Source: Ignavibacteria bacterium (GTDB lineage Bacteria > Bacteroidota > Ignavibacteria > Kapaibacteriales > UBA2268). From it: a stretch of 64,000 bases of DNA. The translations under genes were made by a program, and so were the position numbers. How positions within the stretch are numbered: the stretch's first letter is position 1; each line of letters begins with the position of its first letter. Where the stretch lies: positions 26,464-90,463 of the forward strand of contig JAAYTD010000031.1 of assembly GCA_012518115.1 (NCBI GenBank). The letters are read 5' to 3'. Shown here in pieces: positions 3,837-64,000 of this stretch. Below the pieces are notes generated by a model, which was not told the origin of the DNA, did no database searches, and was given only the letters and a program-made list of their open reading frames with translations.

Positions 3837-3880
3837 AAAAAGACAATGTAACTTTTATATAAATCACATTGTCTTTCTTC
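3832..3880. terminator. Bidirectional rho-independent terminator between convergent genes
   Basis: 11-bp perfect stem AAAGACAATGT (3839-3849) / ACATTGTCTTT (3866-3876), flanked by an A-run upstream and a T-rich tract downstream. Confidence 0.65.
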
Positions 3881-5798: not shown

Positions 5799-6905
5799 CT
5801 AAATAATCAACATTGCATCACCATATATTAAGAAGCGATATTCTTCTCTAACCGCTCTTTTATATGCTTTTAATAAAAATTCACGGTCTGCAAATGCAGC
5901 TGCTAGTAACATAGCAGGCGAATTTGCTTGATGAAAATTAGTAAGTAAGCGAGTTACAACTTTAAAATCATAAGGCGGATATATGAATTTATCCGTCCAA
6001 CCACGATTCGGTTTGACTTTCCTATTTGTTAAGACAGACGACTCTAAAGCACGTACCACACTAGAACCCACAGCATAAATATGTTTTCCCATACTCAAAG
6101 ATTTATTAATTGTTTCAGCAGCTTCTCGTGTAATTTCAAAATTTTCTGAATACATTCTATGTTTAGTTAAATCTTCTACCTCTATCTTATCGAAAATACT
6201 TTGTCCTATATGCAAAACTATTTTTACTATTTTCACACCTTTTTTCTTTAACTCATCAAGTATTTCATTAGTAAAATGTAATCCTGCTCCAGGTGGAGCT
6301 ATAGAAGCTATGTGATCATCACTTGCAAATTCTGTTTGATAAGAACGTTTATCAAACTCGACAGGTTCTCTCTTGATATAATCAGGAAGCGGCATTTCGC
6401 CAATCCTATCAACTATTCTATAAATATCTCCTTCGTAAAAGAAACGCACAGAACGTCCTCGTGAAGTTGTATTGTCTATAATTTCACAAAATACTTTCCC
6501 ATTATCAAAATATATTCTATTGCCGATTCTAACTTTCCTAGCCGGCTCAACTAATACATCCCAGATTTGCTTCTCGTCCATTCTACCTTCGTCACCTACA
6601 AATCCTATGCGAGACAGGTCTATGTTTTTTGGCTGTTCAGCCTTTAATTCTCGCAATAAAAGTACCTCTATATTCGCATTTGTTTTTTCTTTTTGACCAT
6701 AAATCTTTGCAGGAAATACTTTTGTTTCGTTCAAAACAATACAATCTCCTTTCTGAAAATAATTAACTATATCTTCAAATTGTTGATTTAATATCTCACC
6801 TGTTTCTCTATTTAAAACCATCATACGAGATGAATTGCGAGGGTCTACCGGGAATTTAGCAATTAAGCTTTTAGGAAGTGTGTACTTAAAATCTATCAAT
6901 CTCAT
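5799..6905 (-). CDS. queA: S-adenosylmethionine:tRNA ribosyltransferase-isomerase
   Basis: MRLIDFKYTLPKSLIAKFPVDPRNSSRMMVL, AGLHFT and TNFHQANSPAMLL are hallmarks of QueA. Confidence 0.9.
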   Translation of the reverse strand: MRLIDFKYTLPKSLIAKFPVDPRNSSRMMVLNRETGEILNQQFEDIVNYFQKGDCIVLNETKVFPAKIYGQKEKTNANIEVLLLRELKAEQPKNIDLSRIGFVGDEGRMDEKQIWDVLVEPARKVRIGNRIYFDNGKVFCEIIDNTTSRGRSVRFFYEGDIYRIVDRIGEMPLPDYIKREPVEFDKRSYQTEFASDDHIASIAPPGAGLHFTNEILDELKKKGVKIVKIVLHIGQSIFDKIEVEDLTKHRMYSENFEITREAAETINKSLSMGKHIYAVGSSVVRALESSVLTNRKVKPNRGWTDKFIYPPYDFKVVTRLLTNFHQANSPAMLLAAAFADREFLLKAYKRAVREEYRFLIYGDAMLII

Positions 6906-13349: not shown

Positions 13350-13778
13350 ATGGCAACAGAAAGAATCACAAGTGAAAAGATTGTAAAAACTTCACATTTC
13401 GGAGAAATAAAAGTAACTCCGGAAACGATTTTCTATTTTGAAAATGGTGTATTAGGATTTGAAGAGTTAAACAATTTTGTTCTTATAACAGAAGATGAAA
13501 CCGTACCTTTCAAATGGCTGTTAGCTATTGAAAACCCTGAAATTATTTTTCCGGTAATCAGTCCGTGGTATATTATAGACACCTATAATCCAGGTAAAAA
13601 TTTTAATTTGGAAAACAATGTACTTTTTGCTATTGTTACTTTAAATGATGGCGAGGGAAATATCACTGCTAATTTAAAAGCTCCTGTTGCACTTAATGTT
13701 ACAGAACAAACTGGCGAACAAATTATTCTTCCTACAGATAAATATGCATTAAATCATATTATTAGCCAAAAAAAATAG
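13350..13778 (+). CDS. fliW: Flagellar assembly factor FliW (CsrA antagonist)
   Basis: 142 aa. FENGVLGFEELNNFVLI...PFKWLLAIENPEI is the FliW signature. Immediately upstream of csrA. Confidence 0.85.
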   Translation: MATERITSEKIVKTSHFGEIKVTPETIFYFENGVLGFEELNNFVLITEDETVPFKWLLAIENPEIIFPVISPWYIIDTYNPGKNFNLENNVLFAIVTLNDGEGNITANLKAPVALNVTEQTGEQIILPTDKYALNHIISQKK

Positions 13779-13787
13779 AGGTTCATA

Positions 13788-14102
13788 ATGTTAGTTCTGT
13801 CAAGAAAAACTGGTGAAGTTATTACCGTAGGAAAATCAATTACTATCACAGTACTCAGCAATGATCGAGGAATTGTTCGTTTAGGTATAGAAGCACCGAA
13901 AAATGTTCCTGTGCATAGAAAAGAAGTTTTTGATAAAATAGTTGAGCTAAATCAACAAGCTTCAAAATTTCGTTTTATTGACCTTAAAAATGCGATTTCA
14001 AACAAAGAAGTTGTTGTTGTACGAAAAAAGAACGAACAAAACTATAATAAACAACATAATCAAAATCTTATTACTAATAATATTGTTACTAAGAAAAAAT
14101 AA
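13788..14102 (+). CDS. csrA: Carbon storage regulator CsrA with extended C-terminal tail
   Basis: MLVLSRKTGEVITVGKSITITVLSNDRGIVRLGIEAPKNVPVHRKEV is canonical CsrA. It is followed by a ~35-aa N/K/Q-rich extension. Confidence 0.9.
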   Translation: MLVLSRKTGEVITVGKSITITVLSNDRGIVRLGIEAPKNVPVHRKEVFDKIVELNQQASKFRFIDLKNAISNKEVVVVRKKNEQNYNKQHNQNLITNNIVTKKK

Positions 14103-14793: not shown

Positions 14794-15600
14794 ATGAAAA
14801 AAATAGATAACATAGCTTCTGTAAACGGTAGATTGCTCCTACATGAAGTTTATCATAAGCTTAAATTTGAAAGACAAAGAAATTCACTCTCCGTATTGCT
14901 AACTTTATGGCGTATCTGCACAGTCGAAACAGAAATAAATCAATATATAGATGAAGATGAAGTAATTATTCTGCACAAATTAGGTTTTTGGCGTGGCACT
15001 CTATTGTGGATAGAAGAAATAGTAAGTCGATATTATTTTTCAACAATAAATTCACTCGTTTATTTTGGTGCAGCTGTTTTACTCGTGCTTATAGGACTTA
15101 ACAACTTTACTGACAAAGTAGATAGTTCTGTCGTTGTCTATGGATTAGCCTTTGAAGCTTCTATGCTCCTATTAATGTTTTTTATAATGCTTTTCACCCC
15201 TAATGATGATATTTTTCTCTTAAAAAACTATGAAAAAGAAGATGATTTACAAAAAGAATTACTTGAGGAAATCGGAGAAATAAGTCGTGATTTCGCTCTA
15301 ACTTCCGCTCAATTAGAAAAAAGTATTTCTTTTTTTGAAACTATTATTGACAAACAAAATAGCCTTTTAGAAATTATTAGTAAAATATCGCAAACTAATA
15401 TTGAAGCAGTAAATCCAAATCCAAAAATGATAGAAATTATGCAAGAAACTAATATAAGTATCGCTAAATTTAATGAAAACTTAAAGACTATAAACTCAAC
15501 CCTTGAAGAAGTCAAATCCTATGAAATTCAAGCTATTGTAAAAAAAGAAATAGAGCTTTTTTTTACTGATAGATTTTCTAATAATTCCCATAATAAATAA
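14794..15600 (+). CDS. Hypothetical membrane protein with C-terminal coiled coil
   Basis: Two or three hydrophobic helices (residues ~85-135), then a long E/K/I-rich helical region. Same strand and close spacing with fliW-csrA-REC. Confidence 0.35.
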   Translation: MKKIDNIASVNGRLLLHEVYHKLKFERQRNSLSVLLTLWRICTVETEINQYIDEDEVIILHKLGFWRGTLLWIEEIVSRYYFSTINSLVYFGAAVLLVLIGLNNFTDKVDSSVVVYGLAFEASMLLLMFFIMLFTPNDDIFLLKNYEKEDDLQKELLEEIGEISRDFALTSAQLEKSISFFETIIDKQNSLLEIISKISQTNIEAVNPNPKMIEIMQETNISIAKFNENLKTINSTLEEVKSYEIQAIVKKEIELFFTDRFSNNSHNK

Positions 15601-19767: not shown

Positions 19768-20172
19768 TTTTTCACCTTTCTTTTTATAAATTTAGTTAAT
19801 AAAATTAATTGTATTCCTGTTTTTTAAAATTAATAATAAATTAGCAAAAAAACAAAATAATTTGAACTAAATATTAACAATATTAATTTTTCATATCTTT
19901 ATTTTGGAAAAAATTACTAAAATTAAAATTGTGTATTTTTTTAAAAAACAAATATTGCATTTTTATTTACAACAAGATGAATAAGTAAACTATGTAGCTA
20001 TGGATGGATAGTTAAATCTAAATATAGACAAAAGTTTTTTCTATATGAAAAAACGTGGTATTATGAGATGAGTTACGAATTTGAAAATAGTAGAAACGCA
20101 AAAAACACCCTAAGAATACTCTGCAAAATAATATTTTTTGGAGTAATCTATTTTTTATTAGCACGAAGAAAT

Positions 20173-20436
20173 TTAGAATTCGCCAAGTTCTTTTAGGAGT
20201 TTCGCAGCAGTTTCACGTATAATTCCAGGATCGTTGTAATATCCCATACGAATTTTTGCTCTAATAGAATCCATTTTTGATATATCTAAAGAAACGTCAA
20301 GCGTATCTATATTATCTTGAATATTATTTTCTTTTGGCATTTCTTCGATATTTTCTTTTTTATGTTTTATTTCTAGATTATTTTTAGTATTTACTAATTT
20401 GTTATAAGGTGTTATTTTCATTGTTCTATTGATCAT
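20173..20436 (-). CDS. flgM: Anti-sigma-28 factor FlgM
   Basis: 87 aa. C-terminal DSIRAKIRMGYYNDPGIIRETAAKLLKEL matches the FlgM sigma-28-binding helices. Lies within the late flagellar operon. Confidence 0.7.
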   Translation of the reverse strand: MINRTMKITPYNKLVNTKNNLEIKHKKENIEEMPKENNIQDNIDTLDVSLDISKMDSIRAKIRMGYYNDPGIIRETAAKLLKELGEF

Positions 20437-20782
20437 TATATAATAATAATTTTTTTGTTTTAGTAATTTCCAATAATTTCTCTTTTATTTCTGAAAGCTT
20501 TGTTTCAAAGAAATTTATATTTTCTTCTTCTACAGGTATAATTTTTTCCATAAATTGTGTCCATCTATCTGTTGCAGGAATTTTAACTCCTTCGCTTGTT
20601 GAAATTAATTTATTTAATTCCTCTATACTTTGCTCTCGCTTTAGATATCTATCCTCTATTGTAAGAATATCTGAAGTTTCATCAAAATTATTTTTTTTTA
20701 TAATTTCTGCTATTTCTTGAGTCAAGCTAATTATTTCTTTAGAAATAATTTCAAACTGTTCTATAACATTAAACTTTTGCAT
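20426..20782 (-). CDS. Uncharacterised helical flagellar-operon protein (possible FliT/FlgN-type export chaperone)
   Basis: 118 aa, predicted all-helical. Overlaps flaG by 14 nt and flgM by 11 nt. The assignment rests on context and weak resemblance only. Confidence 0.35.
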   Translation of the reverse strand: MQKFNVIEQFEIISKEIISLTQEIAEIIKKNNFDETSDILTIEDRYLKREQSIEELNKLISTSEGVKIPATDRWTQFMEKIIPVEEENINFFETKLSEIKEKLLEITKTKKLLLYNDQ

Positions 20783-21218
20783 CTGTAATTTGCCCTACTT
20801 CTAAAGTTTTATTTATAATTTTAGCTATTTTCAGAGTAATCTCTGATGGATATTGTCTTATAATTTCATTTGTTTCTTTATCAATAACTCGCATTAACAT
20901 TTCTTCAGTTTCTTCATCTTTTACAAATTCAAAATAAATTCCTTCAATTTTAGCTATACTCTCCATTTTTTCAGCAAGTTTTTTATATGTAACTTTCGGA
21001 GAATCCTCTTGCGAATTTTTATTTTCTTCCTTGTTACGGCTATTATCAAGTTGATTATCTTTAATGTTTTTTCTATTTACATCTAATTTTTCTTTTTTTG
21101 CAGATACATTTTCATTACTTAGCATTTCAGCAAAAGCATTATCTGTATTTTTTCTAAAGGTATTATCATATTTTACTCTATCATTTACTATTGAAATGTT
21201 ATTTATTGTAGTAATCAT
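20769..21218 (-). CDS. flaG: Flagellar protein FlaG
   Basis: C-terminal LMRVIDKETNEIIRQYPSEITLKIAKII is the FlaG family core. Strong SD TAGGAGGGAG lies 5-8 nt upstream. Confidence 0.75.
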   Translation of the reverse strand: MITTINNISIVNDRVKYDNTFRKNTDNAFAEMLSNENVSAKKEKLDVNRKNIKDNQLDNSRNKEENKNSQEDSPKVTYKKLAEKMESIAKIEGIYFEFVKDEETEEMLMRVIDKETNEIIRQYPSEITLKIAKIINKTLEVGQITDAKV

Positions 21219-21260
21219 AATAATCTCCCTCCTAATTTATATATATAATAATATATTTTT

Positions 21261-22847
21261 TTAACCATACTGTTGTCTTAACAAACTGTCGTAACTACTT
21301 CCATAATTACCTATAGTTCCCATTGTATTTAATAATAGCAATTGATTTTGCGCCTTATAATATGTTTCCAAATAACTAGTATATTGTTTCCTATAAGACT
21401 CTGCTTGTTTGTCTATTCCTTGTTTAACGCTCTCTATCCTTTTTTGATTATACTTAAGTTGGTCTTCTATTGCCGATAAGCGATTTTGAACCAACCCATT
21501 TTCTTCTTCTTTGCTCATAAGCGAACTAATTGTTTCACTTATTTTAGCAGCAAATCCTGTAGAAGATGTGAATAAATCGGCAACAAGTTGTGCGCCATTT
21601 TCACGTTTTAGTATATTTTCTAATTTACTTGAGTCAGTTAAAGATAAAATATTTTCAGAATTTATTGTATATCCGATTTCTGAAATATATTTTGGAACAT
21701 TTACATCATCTGTTTTTACTAAACTTATCGCTGCAAAATTCCGGAATTCACCTTGCAAAGCACGTATAGCTGAATCATTTCCTGATTTATCTTTAGCTAC
21801 AACTAAATAATTAGCTAAGCTATTAAATGCAGTAATAAGAGGTTCTATCAAAGTTTTAACTGCCTCTGTATCTATAGCAGTTTCTAAAGCAATAGGAAGC
21901 TCATCTGTATTTTGTACTTTTTTCAAAGTAAATGTAAGTCCGTCCACAGCATCATCAATTGTATTAGAAGACCGGACAATAGTTACGCCATTAAGTTCTA
22001 TTATTGAATTTAGTTGAGAAGCACTTGCAACTTTAAAACCCGGACTTTGAGAATCACTTTCATAAACTTTCCTAACATTTCCAGTATCTTGAGAAATTTC
22101 TGCATCAAATCCTATTTTTTTCGCAAATGTTGATTCAGTGGTTTTTTCTTCATTTATAAATACAATTTGATTTGCTTCGCCACTGTTTTTAGAAGTTAAA
22201 GTTATACAACCTGTTTCAGCTGTTGTTTTTATGAATGAAGCATTTAATAAACCGCCAAACCCTCCGTCTTTTGCAGAGGCATTTATACTCTTAACAAGAT
22301 TTTTCAGTACAGTTTCATTCGTATCTTCAGCACCAACTGTTATTTTAAATGTTTTTGTTTCGTCGCCAACTTTTATAGAAAATTGTTGAACGCCTACACC
22401 TAATTTACCATTTCCATCTACTGTATCTTCATTGCTGAAAATATCGTTTAAATTGAATTGAGCTCCAATAAAGGTATCACTTGTAGCTAGTTGTTGAACT
22501 TTAACCGTATTAGCTCCTAAAGAAGCTTTACTGTTTGCTGCAACAGAAACAAAATCATTATTAGAAGATATTACTTTCCTCGTAATAAATTTTTCATCAA
22601 TAGTATCAACTTTCTGAAAAGTAGGCTTACCGTTCTCGTCAAGTTTAACTTCTCCAAACTTATCTAATTCTTTAGCTAAAGAACTTAACTTAGAGAAAAC
22701 TGTATTAAAGAAAACCTTTTTATTGTTAAGCTGTGTTGCTCTTGCTTCTAAAGGCGCAACTTTATACTGTTGTGTAGATCTAAAAGCTTCAATAAGTTTT
22801 TCCGTATCTGATTGTCCTGTTGTGTTAATACCGAAATAGGATGCCAT
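21261..22847 (-). CDS. fliD: Flagellar filament cap protein FliD (HAP2)
   Basis: 528 aa. N-terminal GINTTG...LIEAFRSTQQYKVAPLE and a C-terminal coiled coil (RLSAIEDQLKYNQKRIE...YRKQYTSYLE) are typical of FliD. Confidence 0.85.
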   Translation of the reverse strand: MASYFGINTTGQSDTEKLIEAFRSTQQYKVAPLEARATQLNNKKVFFNTVFSKLSSLAKELDKFGEVKLDENGKPTFQKVDTIDEKFITRKVISSNNDFVSVAANSKASLGANTVKVQQLATSDTFIGAQFNLNDIFSNEDTVDGNGKLGVGVQQFSIKVGDETKTFKITVGAEDTNETVLKNLVKSINASAKDGGFGGLLNASFIKTTAETGCITLTSKNSGEANQIVFINEEKTTESTFAKKIGFDAEISQDTGNVRKVYESDSQSPGFKVASASQLNSIIELNGVTIVRSSNTIDDAVDGLTFTLKKVQNTDELPIALETAIDTEAVKTLIEPLITAFNSLANYLVVAKDKSGNDSAIRALQGEFRNFAAISLVKTDDVNVPKYISEIGYTINSENILSLTDSSKLENILKRENGAQLVADLFTSSTGFAAKISETISSLMSKEEENGLVQNRLSAIEDQLKYNQKRIESVKQGIDKQAESYRKQYTSYLETYYKAQNQLLLLNTMGTIGNYGSSYDSLLRQQYG

Positions 22848-22910
22848 GATTTATTTCAAAATTATGTTATAAAGATAGAATAAGTAAAATTTTATTTTTT
22901 ATTAATGCTA

Positions 22911-23318
22911 CTATCCAATATTGTTAACTGCGTTATCGGTAATATTAGTATCTTCTTGTTTTTTCGGCTTTTCCTCTAAGTTAAAAGCCTTAGCCCAAGT
23001 ATTACGCAACTCCGTAATAATATAAAGTGCTTCATCACTTTTATTTTGGAAAATACAACGCTGACAATACTCATAAAGTCTATAGAGTCTTGTCGAAGTT
23101 TCTTCATATTCAAAATTCAATGCGCCCATAAGTTCTACTAATACTCTTGTCATTTTTTGCGTATCACCTCTTTTTGTAGAGACTATAAACAAATCATACA
23201 TCTTCAAGATAAGTTTCTCTTTACTCCAAGAATAAACTTCCTGTTCTAAGTATCCAGGTACTTTTTTATTATTAGCATATAACTTATTTGCTGCAAGTTG
23301 TTGTCCTATTAGTGCCAT
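22911..23318 (-). CDS. fliS: Flagellin-specific export chaperone FliS
   Basis: 135 aa four-helix pattern (ILKMYDLFI...LVELMGALNFE...LYRLYEYCQRCI) plus its position between flagellin and fliD. Confidence 0.8.
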   Translation of the reverse strand: MALIGQQLAANKLYANNKKVPGYLEQEVYSWSKEKLILKMYDLFIVSTKRGDTQKMTRVLVELMGALNFEYEETSTRLYRLYEYCQRCIFQNKSDEALYIITELRNTWAKAFNLEEKPKKQEDTNITDNAVNNIG

Positions 23319-23360
23319 AGTTTTTTATTTTATGAATATAAATTAATTTGATTTCTTTTT

Positions 23361-23389
23361 TTATCGGCTTGTTCGATAAAAAACTTTAG
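23361..23389 (-). promoter_or_regulatory. Sigma-28 (FliA)-type promoter for fliS-fliD-flaG-orf-flgM
   Basis: Minus strand reads TAAA-N16-GCCGATAA (-35 from 23388-23385, -10 from 23368-23361). The -10 is a perfect consensus and lies 43 nt upstream of the fliS ATG. Confidence 0.7.
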
Positions 23390-23513
23390 TTTTGTACTGT
23401 TAAAACAAACAAAATGAATATAAATTAATTTATTATTTGAAAAATATATATTAAAATCGTTGAAAATAATTATAACGAAATAGGTATTTATTTATTTGAT
23501 AGCTAATTAAAAT

Positions 23514-23561
23514 ATTGCCGAAAAATCCAAATTATAAATTTAATCTAAATCTTTCGGCAAT
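23514..23561 (-). terminator. Possible terminator / stem-loop downstream of flagellin
   Basis: 10-bp inverted repeat ATTGCCGAAA (23514-23523) / TTTCGGCAAT (23552-23561). The loop is long (28 nt) and the T-tract weak, so the call is tentative. Confidence 0.35.
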
Positions 23562-23622
23562 TAGCATTCTGTTATACTCTATTTACTTATCAGTTCTTAA
23601 AAACCAATTTTTTGATTATATT

Positions 23623-24759
23623 TTATTGCAATAACTGCAAGAAAGTTGCTGGATTTTGGTTTGACTGCGCTAAGGAAGTTAGCGATGCACTTTGTAAGAA
23701 CTGTGCTGTAATAAGTCTCATTTGTTCTTCTGCTATATCAGTATCTTCTATTCTTGATATAGCTGCTTTATAGTTTGTAGTTTGGCTCTTCAAAACTTCT
23801 TCTTGCGAACTTAATCTTGTATGTATTCCGCCGAGATAAGAAGCTACTTTGTTTATATTATTAATAGCTCTTGATAAACTCTGCAAAGTTAGATGAACTC
23901 CTGTACCACTTCCTCCATTACCGTCATTAGTAAATATACCTAAATCATTAGCTGCTACTTCGTTAAAGTCTTCTAAGTTAAGACCTGCAACTCCAGCAAA
24001 AGAAGTAGCCGCGCCTGTCATTAATTTAGTTTCTTCTAAGTTTACTATCTGTCTGTTAATAGTTTCCGTTGTTAGATTACCATCTTCATCAACTCCTGTA
24101 TTGCGTGTTTCATCTGGTCCAGCAGTATAGGTCACTGCTTGTCTAATTGCTTTTGCATCTTTTGTTGCATTTAAGTCAAAAAGACCAACTGTGGTACTAT
24201 CGGGAGAACCTGGGACATTGACAATATTAAATTCTTCAAGATTGTTGGTTGTTAAATCAATTTTTACTGTCATTAATTCATCATTAGCGTAATAACCTGT
24301 TACCCAGTCGCCTGAAAAATTACCTTGTAAAAGTTGTTTTCCACCAAACACTGTTGAATCTGTGATGAATTGGATTTGTTGCGCTAATCTATAGCTTGAT
24401 TTTGCAAGAGCTACTTTTTCGTCTGAGCCTAATGCACCTGACGAAGCTTGAGCAGTAGCATCTTTAATTTGTGTAAGAAGAGCGCCTATTTGATCTAAGG
24501 CATCTTGTGCTATACCGGTTACGTTCTTTGCATCACCGGCAGCTTGCAACGCAGCTTGTAAAGCTCCTGTACGAGCTGTTAATGACTTTGATGTAATATA
24601 ACCTGCAACATCATCTGATGCTGAATTGATACGCTTTCCTGTAGAAAGTCGTAATTGACTGCGAGCTATAATATTACTCGCTTCACTTAATGAATTGTAA
24701 GCATTTTGAGCTGGAATGTTAGTCCGAATGCGTGCGCCACCACTGATTGGTATTGGCAT
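23623..24759 (-). CDS. fliC: Flagellin
   Basis: Start reassigned to the internal ATG at 24759 (MPIPISGGARIRTNIPAQNAYNSL...), which is preceded by GGAGG. Conserved flagellin N-terminus (RLSTGKRINSASDDVAGY) and C-terminus (LITAQFLQSASLTSLAQSNQNPATFLQLLQ). Confidence 0.9.
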   Translation of the reverse strand: MPIPISGGARIRTNIPAQNAYNSLSEASNIIARSQLRLSTGKRINSASDDVAGYITSKSLTARTGALQAALQAAGDAKNVTGIAQDALDQIGALLTQIKDATAQASSGALGSDEKVALAKSSYRLAQQIQFITDSTVFGGKQLLQGNFSGDWVTGYYANDELMTVKIDLTTNNLEEFNIVNVPGSPDSTTVGLFDLNATKDAKAIRQAVTYTAGPDETRNTGVDEDGNLTTETINRQIVNLEETKLMTGAATSFAGVAGLNLEDFNEVAANDLGIFTNDGNGGSGTGVHLTLQSLSRAINNINKVASYLGGIHTRLSSQEEVLKSQTTNYKAAISRIEDTDIAEEQMRLITAQFLQSASLTSLAQSNQNPATFLQLLQ

Positions 24760-24763
24760 AAAA

Positions 24764-24820
24764 CCTCCGTGTTTTATACAAATTAAATTAAAAAAATATT
24801 TAGTTTGAGGGCTTCCTGCC
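24764..24820 (-). promoter_or_regulatory. Flagellin 5-prime leader with two candidate CsrA sites
   Basis: On the mRNA strand, GGC-AGGAA-GCC (24820-24809) presents GGA in a hairpin loop. The SD ACGGAGG (GGAGG = complement of 24764-24768) is the second GGA site. Confidence 0.5.
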
Positions 24821-24894
24821 AATTATTTGTCCAAATAACCGCTAAAAACGGTTTGAAGTATCAGTAATTTTTTTACTATCTGCTTCTTTTTACA

Positions 24895-32847: not shown

Positions 32848-33013
32848 ATTCTCCTCTTGAGAGTTGTAGATAAGGGTGTTCTGCCCTCATTTTTGCTAAG
32901 CAGGAGAGGTGTGGCATTCTCCTCTTGAGAGGAGTACCCGCGAAGCGGGGGAGGTGTGGGACTACACCGTCAAACTTCGTTTGCCACCCCTTCGTACCAA
33001 AGAGGAAATTTTG
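32848..33013 (+). repeat. Mosaic GC-rich hairpin repeat locus (two M1 units followed by an ACTAC...CCGTCAAAC module)
   Basis: 32915-32958 equals the reverse complement of 61690-61745 apart from a few changes. 32961-33013 parallels 53726-53775. Hairpins: CTCCTCT-TGA-GAGGAG and CCCGC-GAA-GCGGG. Confidence 0.75.
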
Positions 33014-43442: not shown

Positions 43443-43781
43443 ATGCTTAAGATAGATAAGTTTTTAGATACTGAACCTGTTATTATAAAAATTAGCGGAA
43501 TACTTGATTCTGTTACAACAAAAGAATTTCAAAACGAAATCAACGACATTCTATCACTTAATCATAAAAAAATGATAATAGATTTTGCTGAAATTTCTTA
43601 TATTAACAGCAAAGGAATAAAAGCTCTTATAGAAATACTAAAAACTATTTCTTCTATGAGAGGAGAACTATATTTTGTAGCTCTCTCGCCTCATATCTAT
43701 GAAATATTTAAAGTATTAGGATTAGATAAAGTATTTCAAGTATTTGATAATTATAAAGATATCATAGCAAAACTAACGTAA
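43443..43781 (+). CDS. STAS-domain anti-sigma-factor antagonist-like protein
   Basis: 112 aa. IIDFAEISYINSKGIKALIEIL with Ser at the phospho-site position, and a C-terminal LGLDKVFQVF typical of SpoIIAA/RsbV. Confidence 0.7.
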   Translation: MLKIDKFLDTEPVIIKISGILDSVTTKEFQNEINDILSLNHKKMIIDFAEISYINSKGIKALIEILKTISSMRGELYFVALSPHIYEIFKVLGLDKVFQVFDNYKDIIAKLT

Positions 43782-47613: not shown

Positions 47614-47678
47614 AAAATTCCTCTTTGCAGATTGTTGGGACGTGTAGCGACACATCCTAGAAAGTTTGACGGGGTAGT
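47614..47678 (-). repeat. Copy of the mosaic intergenic repeat (ACTACCCCGTCAAACTT + hairpin + GCAAAGAGGAATTTT)
   Basis: Reverse complement reads actaccccgtcaaactttctaGGATGTGTcgctACACGTCCcaacaatctgcaaagaggaatttt. Its end modules are shared with the 32961-33013 and 53726 copies. Confidence 0.65.
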
Positions 47679-47696: not shown

Positions 47697-49781
47697 ATGA
47701 CAAATCTGACAATTATAAATTTAATAAATAATTTTACTTTGCCATTAAACCACTCGGTTCATGTTTTTGCTATCTTGTTGGCAATTATACTTTTTGTACC
47801 GATAATTTTGAAACGAATAAATGTACCTAACATAATTGGACTTATTATTGCAGGTGTGATTATTGGTCCTTATGGACTTAACTTAATTGATAACCATCAT
47901 CAAGGTGTGTCAATGTTTTCCACTATAGGACTTCTGTACATAATGTTTATTGTAGGATTAGAACTTGATTTGAACGAGTTTTTAGCCAATAAAAACAAGA
48001 GTATAGTTTTCGGTTTTTTCACCTTTATTATTCCAATTTCAATTGGCTTTCCAGTTTGTTACTACCTATTAGGATACGATTTTAATGCAAGTTTTTTAAC
48101 AGCTAGTATGTTTGCTACTCACACACTTGTAACTTACCCTATTGTCAGTAGGCTTGGTGTTGCAAAAAATCAAGCTGTTGCAATAACAGTGGGCGGTACT
48201 ATTTTGACAGATACAGCAGTACTGATAATTCTAGCACTTATTTTATCTAATACTGACGGCGGTATCAACACGATATTTTTAATAAAGCTAGCTTTGTCGG
48301 TGATCGTTTTTTTCGCAATTGTTTTTCTATTAATACCACGAATTGCCAAATGGTTTTTTCAGAAAGGTGGAGGTGAAAAGTATTCTCATTATATTTTTGT
48401 TCTTTTTATCATCTTTTTCTGTGGTTTTTTAGCCGAACTTTGTGGATTAGAGGCAATAATTGGAGCTTTTACAGCTGGTCTAGCTTTAAATCGTCTAATT
48501 CCTCATTCATCGGCATTAATGAATCGTATAGATTTTTTTGGCAATTCCTTGTTCATTCCAATTTTTTTAATATCTGTTGGTATGTTAGTCAATATTTCAG
48601 TAGTTTTCAATGGAATGACAACAATAATTATAGCAGGAATTCTCACTATAACGGCACTACTCGGCAAATGGTTTGCCGCTTTTTTTACACAAATTATTTT
48701 CAAATATTCCACAATACAGAGAAATATAATCTTCGGTTTAAGTAGTTCACGTGCAGCTGCAACTATAGTGATAATTATAGTTGGATACAATGCTGGAATA
48801 GTAGATGAATACATATTAAATGGTACAATTGTACTGATTTTATTGACTTGTATCGTGGCATCTTTTGTAACACAAGCTTCAGCAAAAAAACTTGCTGTAA
48901 TTCAAGAAAATGCTCCATTGACAGCTTCTGAATTAGGTGCTTTCGGACAAGAAAAAATTTTAGTACCTATTGCAAATCCATCTAATATCGGTCATCACGT
49001 AGAACTTGCACTTCTTATTAAAGACAAATCCTCTGTAAATTCAATATCTTTGTTAGGTGTAGTCCCCAACAATGAAGCTGCAGAGAAAAATATAATTTCT
49101 TTTAAAAAGCAATTGCAAGATTTTATAGATAATGCAACAGCAGCCGAAATTGATGTAGATACAATCACTACTATTGACCATAATGCTGCAAATGGCATTG
49201 TGCGAACAGCACGAGAGCTTATGACAGATATTATTATTTTAGGGTGGCCTGGAAAAACAGGTGTGTTAGAAAAGCTATTAGGTGACAAAGTTGATTTGAT
49301 AATCAAGAATGTAGATAGAAATTTATTTATTTGTCATATCGAACAAGATTTTATTAATCATAAACGTATAGTTGTAATTTCACCACCTTTGGTAGAAAAA
49401 GAAACTGGATTTAATTTGTGGCTCGCTAAGATTGTAAGGTTGTCGCAAGAACTCTCTATCCCAATTTTACATTTAGGAGATCCCAAAACACAAGAAATAA
49501 TTGCGAACACTAAAAACTTATCTGCTCCATTTACTTTTCAGCCCCTTGTTGAATGGCAAAATCCGGTTTTGTATGGTGATATAATCAAGGATAATGATAT
49601 GATAATAATGGTGTCTGCACACCAAGGATATATTTCTTATATGCCTGTACTTGATCATTTGCCTACACGACTTGAAGAACGGTATCCACATCATAGCCGC
49701 ATAGTTGTTTATCCTAAACAACGCACTATAGAAGGTTTGTTGGAAAGCGACGATTCAATATTTGTGCCGTCAAATTTTTAA
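47697..49781 (+). CDS. CPA2-family cation:proton antiporter (Kef/NhaP-like) with ~280-aa cytoplasmic C-terminal domain (tandem USP-like suspected)
   Basis: 12-13 TM helices with a Na_H_Exchanger-type pattern (GLIIAGVIIGPYGL, LELDLNEF, GAFTAGLAL), then a soluble C-terminal region (ILVPIANPSN...IIILGWPG...IVVISPP). Confidence 0.75.
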   Translation: MTNLTIINLINNFTLPLNHSVHVFAILLAIILFVPIILKRINVPNIIGLIIAGVIIGPYGLNLIDNHHQGVSMFSTIGLLYIMFIVGLELDLNEFLANKNKSIVFGFFTFIIPISIGFPVCYYLLGYDFNASFLTASMFATHTLVTYPIVSRLGVAKNQAVAITVGGTILTDTAVLIILALILSNTDGGINTIFLIKLALSVIVFFAIVFLLIPRIAKWFFQKGGGEKYSHYIFVLFIIFFCGFLAELCGLEAIIGAFTAGLALNRLIPHSSALMNRIDFFGNSLFIPIFLISVGMLVNISVVFNGMTTIIIAGILTITALLGKWFAAFFTQIIFKYSTIQRNIIFGLSSSRAAATIVIIIVGYNAGIVDEYILNGTIVLILLTCIVASFVTQASAKKLAVIQENAPLTASELGAFGQEKILVPIANPSNIGHHVELALLIKDKSSVNSISLLGVVPNNEAAEKNIISFKKQLQDFIDNATAAEIDVDTITTIDHNAANGIVRTARELMTDIIILGWPGKTGVLEKLLGDKVDLIIKNVDRNLFICHIEQDFINHKRIVVISPPLVEKETGFNLWLAKIVRLSQELSIPILHLGDPKTQEIIANTKNLSAPFTFQPLVEWQNPVLYGDIIKDNDMIIMVSAHQGYISYMPVLDHLPTRLEERYPHHSRIVVYPKQRTIEGLLESDDSIFVPSNF

Positions 49782-49845
49782 AATTCCACTTTGGAACTAA
49801 GGAGTGGCAGGGCGCGCTAGCTTGATGGAACGGTTTGAAGACGGA
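49782..49845 (-). repeat. Copy of the mosaic intergenic repeat, beginning at the antiporter stop codon
   Basis: Reverse complement ...ccatcaagctagcgcgccctgCCACTccttagttccaaAGTGGaattt parallels ccgtcaagctagcgcttgacaCCCCTtctggaaAGGGGaattt (53732-53775). The hairpin pair is changed in a compensatory way. Confidence 0.65.
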
Positions 49846-49911
49846 AGACAGATAATAATTTTTTAACCGCAAAGAGCACAAAGATTTACGAAAAGCACGC
49901 AATCAATATTT

Positions 49912-53629: not shown

Positions 53630-53689
53630 TAATATTTTAAGAAGTTTTGGTAATCTTATTCAAAACAGAAAAAAGATTCTATAATAATT

Positions 53690-53900
53690 TCACCCCTTCG
53701 GGGTTTGTGGTTAATTTTTTAATAGACTACCCCGTCAAGCTAGCGCTTGACACCCCTTCTGGAAAGGGGAATTTGCAGCCCGACCTTCAGGCAAGTATAA
53801 TTTTAAAAATCATACTAATCATACAAATCCCATAAATCACAGTTCAGACAAAAAAGGGCGTATTGGGTACACCCCAACATTCGCAAAAGGAAAATTTTTC
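53690..53900 (+). repeat. Mosaic GC-rich hairpin repeat locus, including the 129-bp unit 53726-53854
   Basis: Hairpins ACCCC-TTC-GGGGT (53692-53704), GTCAAGC-TAGC-GCTTGAC and CCCCTT-CTGGA-AAGGGG. 9-bp sub-repeats AATCATACT/AATCATACA/AATCCCATA. Terminal TTCAGACAAAA. The 53726-53854 unit is ~90 percent identical to the reverse complement of 61379-61517. Confidence 0.85.
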
Positions 53901-59751: not shown

Positions 59752-59980
59752 AAAACAACTTTTCTGTAGTACAACATAGTAAAAACGAAAAAACTTATAT
59801 TGTAAAAATCTCTATTTTTGTTATTTTAAAACTTTTTTGCACTTTTTCAAATATTTCCTTTTTTATTTATAAAAAAATTATTAATTTACAAACAATTGAA
59901 TTTGATTTGTTTTTTTGTTTGATAATTTTTTTAGGCAAAAACAAGTAACATTTTTATTAATAAATTTATATTAAATAATT

Positions 59981-61321
59981 ATGAAAAAATTTACTTTATT
60001 AATACTTGTTATTCTCTTTTATTCATATACAAGTATAGCACAATGGGAAATGGTAAGCGCAGGTACAGGACACGGCATCAACAAAATTGTATTTTTTGAT
60101 GAAAATACTGTTTTTTTGGTAGGTAATGGCATTCTGAATACTGTCGAAAAAACGATGACCAAATATGATTTTTCGTCACAAAAATCTTCAACTATTCAAA
60201 TTTCTGATGAAATACCTTCTACAGCACAGTATTCTTCCATTGATATTCTATCAAACAAAGATATTATATTTTGTTCCAAAACAGAAGGTGGCACAGGTGA
60301 ATCACAATTATTTATTTCAAAAGACAATGGCGAAACTTGGAATTTTTTAACAAAATTTTCCGGTGAAACATCATTAGCAGCTAATGGACTAAAATTTTTT
60401 GACGAAGAACTTGGGTTTGCTGTTGGACTGACAAAAACAACAGCAAAGATATTAAAGACACAAGACGGTGGGAAAAACTGGGAAGTTGTTTATGATGATA
60501 ATGACACTAAAAGTAAAGCACCAGGAGGAAATAAAGGAAATTTAAGTTCAATTGTTTTTATAGATAAAGAAACGATTTTAGTAGGTGGCTCAAACGGTCT
60601 TTTACTTAGAAGTGAAGATTGTGGAAAAAGCTGGTCTGAAGAATATATAATTGATGATCCTCTCTACGGCATGAACTTGTTTATAGATGAGATATTAAAA
60701 ATGTCTGACAACACTTTAATTGCCAAAGGAGCTTTTGCTAAACAACTTTATATTTCAAAAGATAAAGGAAAAAATTGGGAGAAAATTAATTTTGGAGAAC
60801 ATTCATCAAAATTTCTCTATGGTGGTGTCGGTTCTATAAGTACTACGCAAGATAACTACATTTATTTTACTACTCAGGCAACAGGAAATACAAGTTTTTT
60901 ACTATGCTCAAAGGATTTTGGTAAAACTTGGGATAAGATTTATGAAGACAGTGGTTTATTTATAGATATTGAAATAAATAATAATTTAGCAGTAATCGGA
61001 TACTTTGATTCTGATGAAATTATTTTTAATCGTAATTTCAAATCTATTAAATTACTTACAAAAATACAAACTTCACTTTATCCAAATCCAGCAAATTCAG
61101 TTTGTACGATAAGCGGATTTTTAGAGACGTTAGCTAAGGATTTCAGTATTTCAATTTATGATATTGCGGGAAACAAATTATTTGACATTTATAACGACAA
61201 AAATTTAGAAGGCGAATTTTCTGTTCCATTTAACACTAAACAGCTAGTTAGTGGAAGTTATAATGTTATTATCAACGCTGATGGAGCAAAAAAAGTAGAA
61301 AAACTAATAATTGAGAGATAG
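59981..61321 (+). CDS. Secreted BNR/Ycf48-like beta-propeller protein with T9SS C-terminal domain
   Basis: Repeated S/T-x-D-x-G-x-x-W motifs (SKDNGETW, TQDGGKNW, SEDCGKSW, SKDKGKNW, SKDFGKTW). C-terminus LYPNPANSVCTISGF...SISIYDIAGNKL...GSYNVIINADGAKKVEKLIIER. Confidence 0.75.
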   Translation: MKKFTLLILVILFYSYTSIAQWEMVSAGTGHGINKIVFFDENTVFLVGNGILNTVEKTMTKYDFSSQKSSTIQISDEIPSTAQYSSIDILSNKDIIFCSKTEGGTGESQLFISKDNGETWNFLTKFSGETSLAANGLKFFDEELGFAVGLTKTTAKILKTQDGGKNWEVVYDDNDTKSKAPGGNKGNLSSIVFIDKETILVGGSNGLLLRSEDCGKSWSEEYIIDDPLYGMNLFIDEILKMSDNTLIAKGAFAKQLYISKDKGKNWEKINFGEHSSKFLYGGVGSISTTQDNYIYFTTQATGNTSFLLCSKDFGKTWDKIYEDSGLFIDIEINNNLAVIGYFDSDEIIFNRNFKSIKLLTKIQTSLYPNPANSVCTISGFLETLAKDFSISIYDIAGNKLFDIYNDKNLEGEFSVPFNTKQLVSGSYNVIINADGAKKVEKLIIER

Positions 61322-61342
61322 CAAAAAAGTATAGAAACAAAA

Positions 61343-61376
61343 GGCACGTTAATTGAAATAACGTGTCTTTTTTTTG
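61343..61376 (+). terminator. Rho-independent terminator
   Basis: GCACGTT-aattgaaat-AACGTGTC stem followed by a T8 run, 22 nt after the stop codon. Confidence 0.7.
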
Positions 61377-61378
61377 TA

Positions 61379-61770
61379 TTTTGTCTGAACTGTGATTTAT
61401 ATGATTAGTATGATTAGTATGATTAGTATGATTTTTAAAATTATACTTGCCTGAAGGTCGGACTGCAAATTCCCCTTCGGCACGAAGGGGTGGCAAGCGC
61501 TAGCTTGACGGGGTAGTTTTTGTCTGAACCGAGATTAACAAGATTAAAGGATTAGCAGGATTGTGCCGTAGGCACAAAATTTCGGTAAAAGAAATGTAAT
61601 CTTACTCATCTCGTCCCGTACGGGACGAAACATAAGCAAGTATAAGTTTTTACCGATATTTAATCCCTACAGGATTTTTAAGGATATATTCCATAACCAC
61701 ACCTCCCCTGCTTCGCAGGTACTCCTCTCAAAGAGGAGAATTTAACAACAAACCACGAAGGAAAATTTTA
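61379..61770 (-). repeat. Largest mosaic GC-rich hairpin repeat locus (about 390 bp, at least seven stem-loops, two units each ending in 9-bp sub-repeats + TTCAGACAAAA)
   Basis: Hairpins: CCCCTTCG-GCA-CGAAGGGG (61472-61490), TTGTGCC-GTA-GGCACAA (61561-61577), TCGTCCCGTACGGGACGA (61611-61628), AATCC-CTACA-GGATT (61662-61676), CCTGC-TTC-GCAGG (61707-61719), CTCCTCT-CAA-AGAGGAG (61722-61738). 61379-61517 is the inverted twin of 53726-53854. Confidence 0.85.
61394..61437. repeat. 9-bp tandem sub-repeat (GATTTATAT GATTAGTAT x3 GATTTTTA)
   Basis: Read directly from the sequence. The twin copy at 53808-53842 has one fewer unit and more divergence. Confidence 0.9.
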
Positions 61771-61777
61771 AATTATA

Positions 61778-62899
61778 TTATTTATCTACTTCATCTATTG
61801 TGCTTTGCTTATAAAACACATATTGCCCTGTTTTTAATTGATAAATATATGCTAATACTTGCGCTACTGTTTTGAACAATGTTTCAGGAATTTCTTGATC
61901 AACTTCAACAAGTTTAAACAATGTTCTAGCTAGTGGTGGATCTTCTACAATAGGGATATTATTTTCATTTGCAACATCTTTAATTTTCATCGCAAGAAAA
62001 TCTACTCCTTTTGCAACCACAATTGGAGCGTTATGTTCGCCTTGTTTATACATTAAAGCAACAGCAAAGTGAGTAGGGTTAGTTATCACAACATCAGCTT
62101 TATTAACATTTTGTATCATTTTTTGACGCAACATATTTCGTCCTAAAGCGCGTAGCCGCGATTTCACGTGTTGATCACCTTCAAGTTGCTTCATCTCTTC
62201 TTTCAATTCTTGCTTAGTCATTTTCATATCTTGCTTAAATTTCCATTTTTGGAAAATAAAATCAGCAACAGCAATGACAATATATAACCCTGCAACTTTC
62301 AATATAATTTCTAATGCCATACTTGTCATTAGATTTGTTACTTCAAAAAAAGGTTTCTCGCTAATAGTAGATATCTCATCAATATGACTTTTAATAACAA
62401 AGAACGATACGCCACCTAATAAAAGAATTTTGAGAATACCTTTAATCAGTTCTACAACTGAATGAGCTGAAAAGAAAACTCGTTTCAAACCAGATAGCAA
62501 CTTAAATGGTTTTGATAAACTTTGCGGATCTGTAAATCTTTTCAACGATAATTTTAATCCAACTTGTGAAATTTCACCAATTAAGACGATAGCTACTACA
62601 ACCAACATAATTGGCAAAAGGAGCTCTCCTAAAAATATAATCAGCTCTTTTATGTATCTAATAAGATTCGTTTCTGTAAAACTAAATTGTGCCGAAGTAC
62701 TTAAAGAATTTGCAAGAAAAGCTTGGAATTTTCTGACAAGAGGCGAACCTAAAGCAAACACAGAAAGCCCACCAAGAAACAGAACTCCTGCAGTAGTCAT
62801 ATCTTGACTTTTTGAAACTTGTCCTTTTTCTCTCGCATCGGCAAGCCGTTTGGCGGTTGGTTCTTCGGTTTTTTCTTGTCCGTCTTTATTCTCTGCCAT
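61778..62899 (-). CDS. flhB: Flagellar type III export switch protein FlhB
   Basis: N-terminal EKTEEPTAKRLADAREKGQVSKS, four TM segments, NPTH autocleavage site in VVITNPTHFAVAL. Confidence 0.9.
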   Translation of the reverse strand: MAENKDGQEKTEEPTAKRLADAREKGQVSKSQDMTTAGVLFLGGLSVFALGSPLVRKFQAFLANSLSTSAQFSFTETNLIRYIKELIIFLGELLLPIMLVVVAIVLIGEISQVGLKLSLKRFTDPQSLSKPFKLLSGLKRVFFSAHSVVELIKGILKILLLGGVSFFVIKSHIDEISTISEKPFFEVTNLMTSMALEIILKVAGLYIVIAVADFIFQKWKFKQDMKMTKQELKEEMKQLEGDQHVKSRLRALGRNMLRQKMIQNVNKADVVITNPTHFAVALMYKQGEHNAPIVVAKGVDFLAMKIKDVANENNIPIVEDPPLARTLFKLVEVDQEIPETLFKTVAQVLAYIYQLKTGQYVFYKQSTIDEVDK

Positions 62900-62910
62900 C
62901 TCTTATGTTT

Positions 62911-63711
62911 TTAATTAGCTAATGCGGGGTTAAAAGTCAGTAATAATTTTGTAATTTCTATCTCCATAATGTTAAGCGCTTGTTTGCTAACAACTCCTAC
63001 AATTGGAACAGCCACAAATAAAATCAACAACCCAACAGCGATTTTTACTTGGAAGCTCAACATAAAAATATTCATTTGCGGTGCAACTCTAGCAAGCATT
63101 GTCAAAGCTAAGTTCATATTAAAAAGAGTAATTAGAACTGGAGCTGCCATTTTCAAACCAAGCATCATAAACGAGGAAACTATAAGAAACAACATTTTTA
63201 ATGTTGATTCTGTCATTAAAAATGTTGTCAGCGGAACAGCTTTTATACTTAAAACTAATGTTTCTATAACAAAATGATGACCTTGCATATATAAAAAAAT
63301 CATCATAGCTGATAAAGCATAAAATTCACCAACTAAAGTTGGAGCCCCTGCTTCTTGGTCAAACATTAAACTCGCTTGATAGCCCATATCCATATCCGTT
63401 ATTCCGCCACCAAAGCGCGCAGCCCAATAAACAATATTTGTTGCAAACCCAAGAATAGCACCTATTAAAAACTCCTTGAATAATAAGAAAAACATATTGA
63501 GAATATTAAAATCAATATGCGGAGCATCTGCAAAACAAGTAGGCGCTAGTATCATAGTGATAATTAGTATCAACATAATTTTAACAGGAATAGGAATTGC
63601 TAAATTACCGTAAAAATGTCCAGCAGTAAAAATACCTGAAATTCGTGCTAAAACAAGAATACCAATAATCAATTTTTCTTGTGTTAATTGTAAAAAAGCC
63701 GTATCAAACAC
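62911..63711 (-). CDS. fliR: Flagellar export apparatus protein FliR
   Basis: 266-aa polytopic protein positioned between fliQ and flhB. Contains the typical GFATNIVYWAARFGGGITDMDMG segment. Confidence 0.8.
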   Translation of the reverse strand: MFDTAFLQLTQEKLIIGILVLARISGIFTAGHFYGNLAIPIPVKIMLILIITMILAPTCFADAPHIDFNILNMFFLLFKEFLIGAILGFATNIVYWAARFGGGITDMDMGYQASLMFDQEAGAPTLVGEFYALSAMMIFLYMQGHHFVIETLVLSIKAVPLTTFLMTESTLKMLFLIVSSFMMLGLKMAAPVLITLFNMNLALTMLARVAPQMNIFMLSFQVKIAVGLLILFVAVPIVGVVSKQALNIMEIEITKLLLTFNPALAN

Positions 63712-63729
63712 TTCTATATTCTCTCTATT

Positions 63730-63993
63730 TTACATTGTCTGAATCATAGTAAACATCTGTATTGTAAACGTTTTTAACGTCGTTATCAAATAGGGTAACA
63801 AAAGTACAACTAAAAGAAGAACAACAATCAACTTTGGAACAAAAGTCAAAGTTTGTTCGGAAATCGAAGTAGCTGCTTGAAAAATAGAAATCAACAAACC
63901 AACTATAAGAGAAGCTAGTAAAAGCGGTCCAACTATAAGTAATATATAATAAAAAGCATCACGTACGATCTGCATTACAAGTTGTTCTGTCAT
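63730..63993 (-). CDS. fliQ: Flagellar export apparatus protein FliQ
   Basis: 87 aa, two TM helices, ISIFQAATSISEQTLTFVPKL core. Confidence 0.85.
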   Translation of the reverse strand: MTEQLVMQIVRDAFYYILLIVGPLLLASLIVGLLISIFQAATSISEQTLTFVPKLIVVLLLVVLLLPYLITTLKTFTIQMFTMIQTM

Positions 63994-64000
63994 ATATTTT

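Follow-up and report, generated by a model that had tools for sequence, protein, structure and literature searches.

Genes and repeat-bearing spacers of the window

The sequence analysed here (the window) is a stretch of 64,000 nt of contig JAAYTD010000031.1 from an Ignavibacteria bacterium, whose proteins carry the NCBI record of an uncultured Ignavibacteria bacterium metagenome-assembled genome (MAG). The window is ~30% GC and encodes housekeeping functions (MreBCD, LpxD, QueA, TonB receptors and proteins sorted by the type IX secretion system (T9SS)) as well as motility functions (FliW-CsrA, flagellin, FliD/S and FliPQR-FlhB), and a tRNA-Ser was the sole RNA gene found in it. Our subject is a family of short, hairpin-bearing repeats in six of its intergenic spacers, which a preliminary description had placed at 3788-3836 (locus A), 32848-33013 (B), 47614-47678 (C), 49782-49845 (D), 53690-53900 (E) and 61379-61770 (F).

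BLAST comparison within the window joined these loci to one another. The longest match, between 53726-53829 in E and 61412-61517 in F, covered 106 nt at 92.5% identity (E-value 4e-36), and the same two arrays shared a second stretch in which 22 of 22 nt were identical (53832-53853 and 61379-61400). Locus B matched F over 45 nt at 93% (32916-32959 and 61697-61741, E-value 3.5e-11) and locus A matched F over 21 nt at 95% (3813-3833 and 61377-61397, E-value 1.3e-4), these 21 nt being common to A and to the ends of both E and F. A separate repeat search of the window returned the same locus pairs. At no more than one mismatch, the motif TTTTGTCTGAAC occurred five times against 0.78 expected, a count reached in 0 of 100 shuffles, and GACGGGGTAGT occurred four times against 0.10 expected from shuffles. 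A covariance model of the commonest unit, U1 (see below), scored 65.5 to 81.5 bits at B, E and F, 51 bits at D (E-value 7e-17) and weakly at C (15 bits, E-value 0.03), where the sequence also resembles a variant module present in contigs L128 and L141. Tracts of 9-bp units were detected by Tandem Repeats Finder at 61400-61433 (3.8 copies, 100% match), 53807-53829 and 61532-61562. These results confirmed that the six loci share sequence well beyond chance, and that they lie at or near the positions first given for them.

Some details of the preliminary description required adjustment. Repeat-bearing spacers had a GC content of 29-41%, compared with 8-23% for ordinary spacers, and all intergenic GC-rich islands of the window belong to B, D, E or F; locus A is not GC-rich, holding only a decayed unit in a spacer with a GC fraction of 0.21. 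Locus D runs on to ~49902 through a purine-rich module, and E begins at 53676. Two of the loci, A and D, do begin at a stop codon, as had been stated.

The arrays are not accounted for by any gene, tRNA or known element. The open reading frames (ORFs) that cross arrays E and F are spurious, on which ground a coding role was rejected, and the coding part of the window (~58 kb by our own gene list) contained zero repeat copies. In Rfam searches of the window only the tRNA-Ser reached the gathering score, and E-value scans of L128-L135 and of array F returned nothing beyond sub-threshold microRNA and small RNA (sRNA) noise. The family had no match among phage and plasmid records (blastn) or IMG/VR viral contigs, and we found no known non-coding RNA or insertion sequence (IS)-derived MITE (miniature inverted-repeat transposable element) family to which it could be assigned.

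Unit structure and covariation

The commonest unit is ~50 nt long. It opens with an AAATT head, which is followed by two GC-rich hairpins, and closes with a G/T-rich tail that is conserved and unpaired (GGGGTAGT or GGAGGTGTGG). It occurs as U1, AAATT-CCCCTTCG(GGA)CGAAGGGG-TG-GCAAGC(GCTA or GAA)GCTTGAC-GGGGTAGT, of which ~20 copies were collected, and as S', AAATT-CTCCTCT(TGA)GAGGAG-TA-CC(C/T)GC(GAAG or GCTA)GC(G/A)GG-GGAGGTGTGG. S' has the layout and loops of U1 with different stems, and was found at 26-28 bits by a covariance model built solely on U1. A variant, V, in which a longer hairpin takes the place of the second hairpin of U1, is present at locus C and in L128 and L141. Other kinds of unit have a single hairpin, such as M5' (AATTTC-ACCCC(TTCG/TAC)GGGGT-TTTGTGG..), or carry a 9-bp minisatellite, as in unit X (AATTTGCAG, a hairpin, AAGTATAATTTTAAA, two to five copies of AATCNNNNN, and a final GTTCAGACAAAA). 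The largest is a structured core of ~125 nt (Type II core), whose four copies, at F and in L129, L136 and L137, are 87-96% identical and have a common predicted fold; a purine-rich module (R) completes the set. The five modules of the preliminary description do recur, and reduce to head-and-tail units of one superfamily: its third module is S' in reverse, and its 'AGGAAAATTTT end' corresponds to the AAATT head of a degenerate unit, seen from the opposite strand.

Neighbouring units meet either by their heads, at AAATT/AATTT (X-U1, and S'-linker-U1), or tail-to-tail, as S' and U1 do in array B. Their order varies between loci (S' precedes U1 in L129, L137 and L132 and follows it in B), so that a single master element with a fixed module order was rejected. 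In most cases X has its TTTTGTCTGAAC end directly against the T-run of a terminator that is native and specific to the gene, and paralogous terminators in L136 and L141 are without this end. Some unlinked U1 copies are identical over 51 nt.

The stems of U1 are maintained by paired changes. Across the aligned copies 91% of stem cells were paired, compared with 28-55% in slid controls, and seven cells were double changes; the observed values were reached in 0 of 500 shuffles. The second hairpin occurs as CAAGC/GCTTG, CAGGC/GCCTG, CAAAC/GTTTG and CGGC/GCCG, the copy in array B, CAAAC(GAA)GTTTG, being a compensated change, and its flanks (CGTC, CCA and GGGGTAGT) are constant across the stem variants. 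A covarying stem between fixed unpaired tags is the pattern that would be expected of recognition by a hairpin-binding protein. Among loop sequences of the kinds seen here, the GCGAAGC loop is unusually stable in DNA and the C-TTCG-G loop in RNA.

Copies outside the window

Outside sequence was obtained by walking out from the window proteins and their paralogues, with biogas-fermenter metagenomes as the source of further copies of the window sequence; L116-L143 denote contigs of the same or closely related organisms unless stated otherwise. Copies were found in L116 (15018-15122), L121 (6900-7145, and 11462-11549, a copy within which the contig stops), L136 (6323-6500), L137 (5350-5860, 9618-9742 and 11380-11685) and L141 (3720-4060 and 6100-6715). 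A metagenome scan with a 21-nt pattern returned nine short JGI contigs, all of ~30-35% GC, of which L127 corresponds to the window and L131 to the L121 locus, the other seven sharing only repeats with the window. In all, the modules recur beyond the window in at least 15 further spacers, which belong to the same organism or to close relatives of it. A 15-nt pattern, ACTACCCCGTCAARC, run against 596 Gb of genome contigs gave only chance matches, in unrelated and mostly high-GC genomes, the pattern being too short for a search on this scale. In ~121 kb sampled independently of the repeat, at least 15 spacers carried copies (~1 per 8 kb), which by extrapolation to a 2.56-Mb genome corresponds to ~300 loci.

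Public contigs end in or near repeats at the end of L117 (window 61664), at the start (window 3922) and end of L121, and at the ends of L138, L139 and L140; the family limits assembly contiguity for this organism. Assembly artefact was rejected as an origin of the arrays themselves: JGI and ENA assemblies, made independently, have identical arrays, array B is found as a 96% variant in a Logan assembly, and all independent assemblies (JGI, ENA, NCBI and Logan) carry the repeats. A second, unrelated repeat family was seen in L141 as two inverted copies of ~90 nt (3772-3860 and 6266-6352), with hairpins GCCGTCAGTTTTAACTGACGG, GGGTTTTAACCC and GGGATAAATCCC, and adjoins units of the main family.

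Position and orientation relative to genes

Copies are present in four of the window's six convergent spacers, of which the remaining two are 13 and 60 bp long, and in two tandem spacers; of the divergent spacers of at least 50 bp, 0 of 6 hold a copy. At stop codons without a native terminator, the first unit that follows has the orientation of the gene and is read from its head (A, B, C, D, M5' in E, and the remnant in F). Over all tandem spacers, U1 was co-oriented with the genes in four cases and anti-oriented in two, and the spacer that contains a related locus, L132 373-597, is apparently divergent. Given this locus and the mixed tandem orientation, the rules of position and orientation are biases rather than absolute, and the earlier claim that every locus lies downstream of a stop codon, correct for the six window loci, becomes a strong bias.

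A terminator scan scored 53850-53897 as terminator-like and 53692-53704 as weakly so, and the genes next to them have no other terminator. By contrast, U1, S' and the Type II core lack an intrinsic-terminator layout, that is, a stem-loop followed by a T-run in the gene direction. The arrays at A, F, L130 and L136 lie past strong native terminators.

The units of each window array are listed in Table 1. The decayed unit at locus A begins at the stop codon of the GT9 gene, and its tail directly adjoins the FKBP gene's native terminator; in array E the unit at 53850-53897 is co-oriented with the DUF5686 gene. Paralogues in L136 and L141 keep the native terminator at the left edge of F, and their divergence from the window starts directly after it; at the other edge, the degenerate unit begins 8 nt past the FlhB stop codon. 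The gene upstream of F, which encodes a T9SS-sorted BNR protein (59946-61377), has its paralogues at L141 2281-3722 and L136 3069-3377. These share the C-terminal sorting domain and the terminator at 93-97% nucleotide identity, which looks like a recent gene duplication that carried the terminator along.

Table 1. Repeat units and adjoining features at the six window loci
Feature	Position	Strand	Structure and basis
A, decayed unit X	3788-3836	+	GAAATTTTGCATAC..AATCATAGTTCAGACAAAA; GTTCAGACAAAA end
B, long S' variant	32848-32915	+	second hairpin replaced or interrupted; similar variant at L116 ~15100-15190
B, S'	32913-32959	+	BLAST and S' comparison
B, U1	32961-33010	-	65.5 bits; tail-to-tail with S'
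C, U1 variant V	47615-47678	+	second hairpin replaced by GGGACGTGTAGCGACACATCC; GACGGGGTAGT tail intact
D, decayed U1	49781-49834	+	51 bits; AAATT head overlaps Na+/H+ exchanger stop codon
D, purine-rich module R	49835-49902	+	..GAAGACGGAAGACAG..AACCGCAAAGAGCACAAAGATTTACG..; also in L128, L137, L121
E, M5'	53677-53725	+	AATTTC-ACCCC(TTCG)GGGGT-TTGTGGTTAATTTTTT; terminator-like, co-oriented with aat gene
E, U1	53726-53774	-	covariance model, 68 bits
E, X	53770-53853	+	head 53770, GTTCAGACAAAA tail 53842-53853; four 9-bp units
E, terminator-like unit	53850-53897	-	AAAATTTTCCTTTTGCGAATGTT-GGGGTGTACCCAATACGCCC-TTTTTT; terminator scan; second copy in L129
F, native intrinsic terminator of upstream T9SS/BNR gene	61339-61376	+	13-bp stem, T8; left edge of F, outside the repeat
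F, X	61379-61471	-	head 61471, tail 61379; AATTTGCAG, hairpin, five 9-bp GATT/AATC units, GTTCAGACAAAA
F, U1	61467-61517	+	AAATT-CCCCTTCG(GCA)CGAAGGGG-TG-GCAAGC(GCTA)GCTTGAC-GGGGTAGT; 81.5 bits, alignment and pair counts
F, second TTTTGTCTGAAC motif	61518-61562	+	then four GATT units spaced 8-9 bp apart
F, Type II core (~125 nt)	61563-61686	+	GTGCCGTAGGCAC hairpin; stem TTTCGGTAAAAG/TTTTTACCGA around TCGTCCCGTACGGGACGA; AATCCCTACAGGATT hairpin
F, S'	61696-61743	-	AAATT-CTCCTCT(TTGA)GAGGAG-TA-CCTGC(GAAG)GCAGG-GGAGGTGTGG; U1 model 25.8 bits, E-value 1.4e-6
F, degenerate single-hairpin unit	61744-61770	-	AAAATTTTCCTTCGTGGTTTGTTGTT; from sequence and comparison with M5' 53677-53725

Turnover between strains

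In other samples of the same strain, arrays A, E and F were identical. A 96%-identical strain (L143) kept array B with ~6 changes in 166 nt (counted by eye), which is near the genome average, and some of these changes weaken stems. In a 91%-identical strain (L138) locus C was absent and locus D present, with small deletions at D that differ in each lineage, and most indels of at least 4 nt in a 10.7-kb comparison fell in C and D. At locus E, L138-L140 (91-96.5% identical) carry a different array after the same junction (AACAGAAAAAAG), at which their contigs end. These strain differences and the indels in C and D indicate that single copies behave as neutral, short-lived DNA, even as the family as a whole keeps its hairpins.

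A further difference is that L138 (4541-4580, equivalent to window 47555/47556) has 37 extra nt with a hairpin, AAACTATTTCTTGCAAATAGCT, directly after the histidine-kinase stop codon, which are missing from the window; remodelling has affected this spacer on both sides. No copies were found in 13.7 and 21 kb from the two nearest available of the more distant relatives, whose MreB is 86% and 73% identical, respectively, and whose spacers are plain AT-rich sequence, which weakly suggests that the family may be confined to a narrow clade.

Other features of the window

The FliW-CsrA pair lies at 13350-14102, and flagellar filament and export genes at 20426-24822 and 61778-64000. The presence of this flagellar set beside many T9SS-sorted proteins fits flagellated Ignavibacteria. 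The 658 bp at 19768-20425 are without an ORF of at least 100 aa, and an 87-aa ORF (20173-20436, minus strand) adjoins the flagellar genes. A 55-nt direct repeat (686-740 and 2108-2162, 91% identity) spans the start codon and leader of the gene at 733-2151 and of the next gene downstream, which suggests two tandem paralogues with a common 5' region. Finally, ~91 nt at 43517-43609, AT-rich and unrelated to the repeat family, are missing from L143 (96%) and L138 (91%). They lie within a 112-aa ORF (43443-43781) that resembles, by eye, a small STAS-type protein; no gene is called there in the relatives, in which the counterpart may be a pseudogene.

Comparison with known repeat families

Among the papers covered by a literature search, none linked Ignavibacteria with MITEs, repetitive extragenic palindromic (REP) sequences or REPIN-type repeats, in line with the earlier statement that no description was known for this lineage. 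The family is one not previously described in the published literature that we found, although the kind of system is already known. Its closest described class is that of the CGTC-tagged REPs, which include the dRS3 repeats of Neisseria intergenic mosaic elements (NIMEs), a class for which no transposase is known (Di Nocera et al. 2013, PMC3733652; Bentley et al. 2007, PMC1797815). REPs of this class have been reported in the Bacteroidetes/Chlorobi group from Chlorobaculum, Chlorobium and Gramella, and not from Ignavibacteria; they are defined by a CGTC (TGTC or CCTC) tag, a stem of 8-9 bp whose first two pairs are A-T, a 4-5-nt loop and a CCA tail that is unpaired (PMC3733652). Read on the reverse strand, the second hairpin of U1 is CGTC-AAGC-TAGC-GCTT-G-CCA, in which the tag adjoins the stem, A-T pairs begin the stem, the loop is 4 nt, and the tag and the CCA tail are fixed around a covarying stem; like the NIMEs, moreover, the units cluster downstream of genes and are found in both orientations. 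In the 15 aligned U1 copies, GACG was present on the forward strand in 14 (GATG at locus D), the loop was GCTA/TAGC (4 nt) in 11 and GAA (3 nt) in four, and the tail was CCA in 11 and ACA in four. The first two pairs were A-T in 10 copies, with G-C as the second pair in four, and the stem was only 4-5 bp long, or 7 bp in the four TGTC copies. The Ignavibacteria unit further differs in having a second, unrelated hairpin, an AAATT head and an extra conserved GGGGTAGT tail, and it has no sequence similarity to dRS3. We have not filed U1 as a CGTC-tagged REP since its stem is half as long and sits inside a larger two-hairpin unit.

REPs, bacterial interspersed mosaic elements (BIMEs) and REPINs are associated with REP-associated tyrosine transposases (RAYTs; Nunvar 2010, PMC2817692; Bertels and Rainey 2011, PMC3116915). 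As in those systems, the present units are high-copy extragenic imperfect palindromes in mosaic arrays with alternating orientation and recurring linkers, which bears out the BIME/REP-like organisation, in unrelated sequence, that had been noted before. Their head-to-head joins (U1/X and U1/S', with two recurring linkers) and the tail-to-tail S'/U1 join in B are of the BIME/NIME mosaic type, and the likeness extends to compensated stem changes, a conserved unpaired tag containing GTAG, and a bias to convergent and tandem spacers. In tag polarity, however, they depart from REPs, as GTAG stands 5 nt 3' of the hairpin (..GCTTGACGGGGTAGT) and, on the other strand, CTAC is at the 5' side. REPINs are inverted copies of one REP, whereas the arrays here pair different unit types. 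Neither the window nor a further ~75 kb showed a RAYT gene, and no integrase was present among the window genes.

Two further systems offer partial parallels. BOX elements of Streptococcus pneumoniae are modular non-coding repeats, made of a few box types, that follow genes and are predicted to fold. The Ignavibacteria family likewise uses a few module types in variable number and order, but BOX has the fixed order A-(B)n-C, whereas here both the order and the orientation of units vary. Fungal mitochondrial GC clusters are short GC-rich palindromes in AT-rich spacers that are polymorphic between strains and thought to be mobile; they belong to organelle genomes and are unrelated in sequence, and the likeness is one of analogy only. 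Integron attC sites, CsrA-binding sRNAs, DnaA boxes and group II intron domains were considered and dropped, as the motifs do not appear to fit.

Nature and origin of the arrays

Taken together, these data lead us to put at roughly 0.7 the probability that the loci are arrays of lineage-specific, non-coding, non-autonomous small repeats of the REP/BIME/NIME/BOX kind. The family is probably non-autonomous selfish DNA, with some units acting as terminator-like hairpins. Of the three roles proposed at the outset (transcript 3' stabilisers or terminators, protein-binding sites, and non-autonomous mobile DNA), the last is favoured, with terminator-like side effects, over a function selected site by site. 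In the model that we prefer, an enzyme whose gene lies elsewhere in the genome would copy units in trans into new sites. It would read the hairpins together with the invariant tag, which is CGTC...CCA on one strand and GGGGTAGT on the other, and its substrate would most plausibly be single-stranded DNA, as for a RAYT or HUH transposase. Insertion at AAATT-like sites and beside earlier units would give rise to the mosaics, after which single copies would undergo neutral drift and decay. Co-oriented units would, as a by-product, supply stable 3' hairpins to neighbouring genes, and two unit types, those of 53850-53897 and of 53677-53725, resemble intrinsic terminators, which the flanking genes otherwise lack.

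Several observations weigh against this interpretation. A search of the window and of ~75 kb beyond it found no transposase of any kind. Neither a clean empty site nor a target-site duplication was recovered at locus C, where a 9% divergence in AT-rich sequence blurs the comparison and leaves an AAAT duplication indistinguishable from background, and no target-site duplication was seen at the L121 element. The absence of the family from the two relatives rests on small samples (13.7 and 21 kb). A strand test based on G-U counts showed no asymmetry (9 versus 5), and both strands of array F folded about equally well (z -4.8 and -4.4), as a result of which a role at the RNA level is inseparable from one at the DNA level. 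Moreover, the units might have spread by recombination or gene conversion between arrays.

We also considered whether the units are mainly cis-elements of the host, that is, terminators or 3' stabilisers selected gene by gene and arising through convergent use or duplication. Such a role would agree with the head-first placement of the first post-stop unit along the gene at all six loci, with the terminator-like character of 53850-53897 and 53692-53704 where the flanking genes have no other terminator, and with UUCG among the loops on the co-oriented strand. The tails of U1 and S' are not U-rich, however, the arrays at A, F, L130 and L136 lie beyond strong native terminators, and the four co-oriented and two anti-oriented tandem copies show no clear bias; copies also degenerate through deletions, are missing from or replaced in close strains and diverge at an approximately neutral rate, and we consider selection of this kind unlikely. 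Alternatively, the 125-nt Type II core or the whole 230-nt composite could be a multi-copy structured small RNA gene. The four copies of the core, at 87-96% identity, do have a strong common predicted fold, the entire array F gives folds well below those of its shuffles (z -4.8), and the copies at F, L136 and L137 share one orientation downstream of a terminator. Against this, there was no Rfam match and no promoter evidence, the opposite strand folds equally well, the L136 copy has decayed in its 3' part, and covariation was seen in just 1 of 56 pairs, there being too little variation, which together make an RNA gene very improbable.

Other forms of mobility were weighed in the same way. If the TTTTGTCTGAAC-plus-9-mer unit were the end of a DDE-type IS, the arrays would be MITEs, internally deleted and bounded by inverted repeats; the ~185 nt at L121 6958-7142 do lie between two inverted copies of this unit. 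That motif often stands directly after a T-run, a possible target preference, and the number of 9-mers varies as that of subterminal repeats does. Yet two inverted TTGTCTGAA.. ends occur only at this L121 element, most loci having one such end or, at F and in L134, two in direct orientation; neither a target-site duplication nor a full-length element or transposase was found (window and ~75 kb), and U1, S' and M5' occur without the TTTTGTCTGAAC motif (B, C, D, L132 and L133). An origin as MITEs is accordingly rated as distinctly improbable, and we regard it as an equally long shot that the AAATT-headed double-hairpin units are the substrate of a new mobilisation system, whether a non-RAYT enzyme that would cut or join hairpin DNA at AAATT or a recombinase that the multi-copy 125-nt Type II RNA would guide. 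Under that reading, insertion would recur at earlier units and so form the mosaics, and, as the stems covary and the tags are fixed, the rules of recognition would be readable from a complete genome.

Significance

The arrays extend a known phenomenon to a new phylum-level lineage and do not overturn current views. For a biogas-reactor lineage that is common, they have a practical consequence: the repeats break short-read and some long assemblies, and knowing the family therefore helps MAG finishing and strain typing. The two portable terminator-like units, each the sole such hairpin for its neighbouring genes, bear on how hosts make use of selfish repeats. CGTC-type REPs and NIMEs are still without a known mobilising enzyme, and a genome that is compact (~2.5 Mb), may hold several hundred copies and shows both clear unit boundaries and polymorphism between strains would be a good place to look for one.

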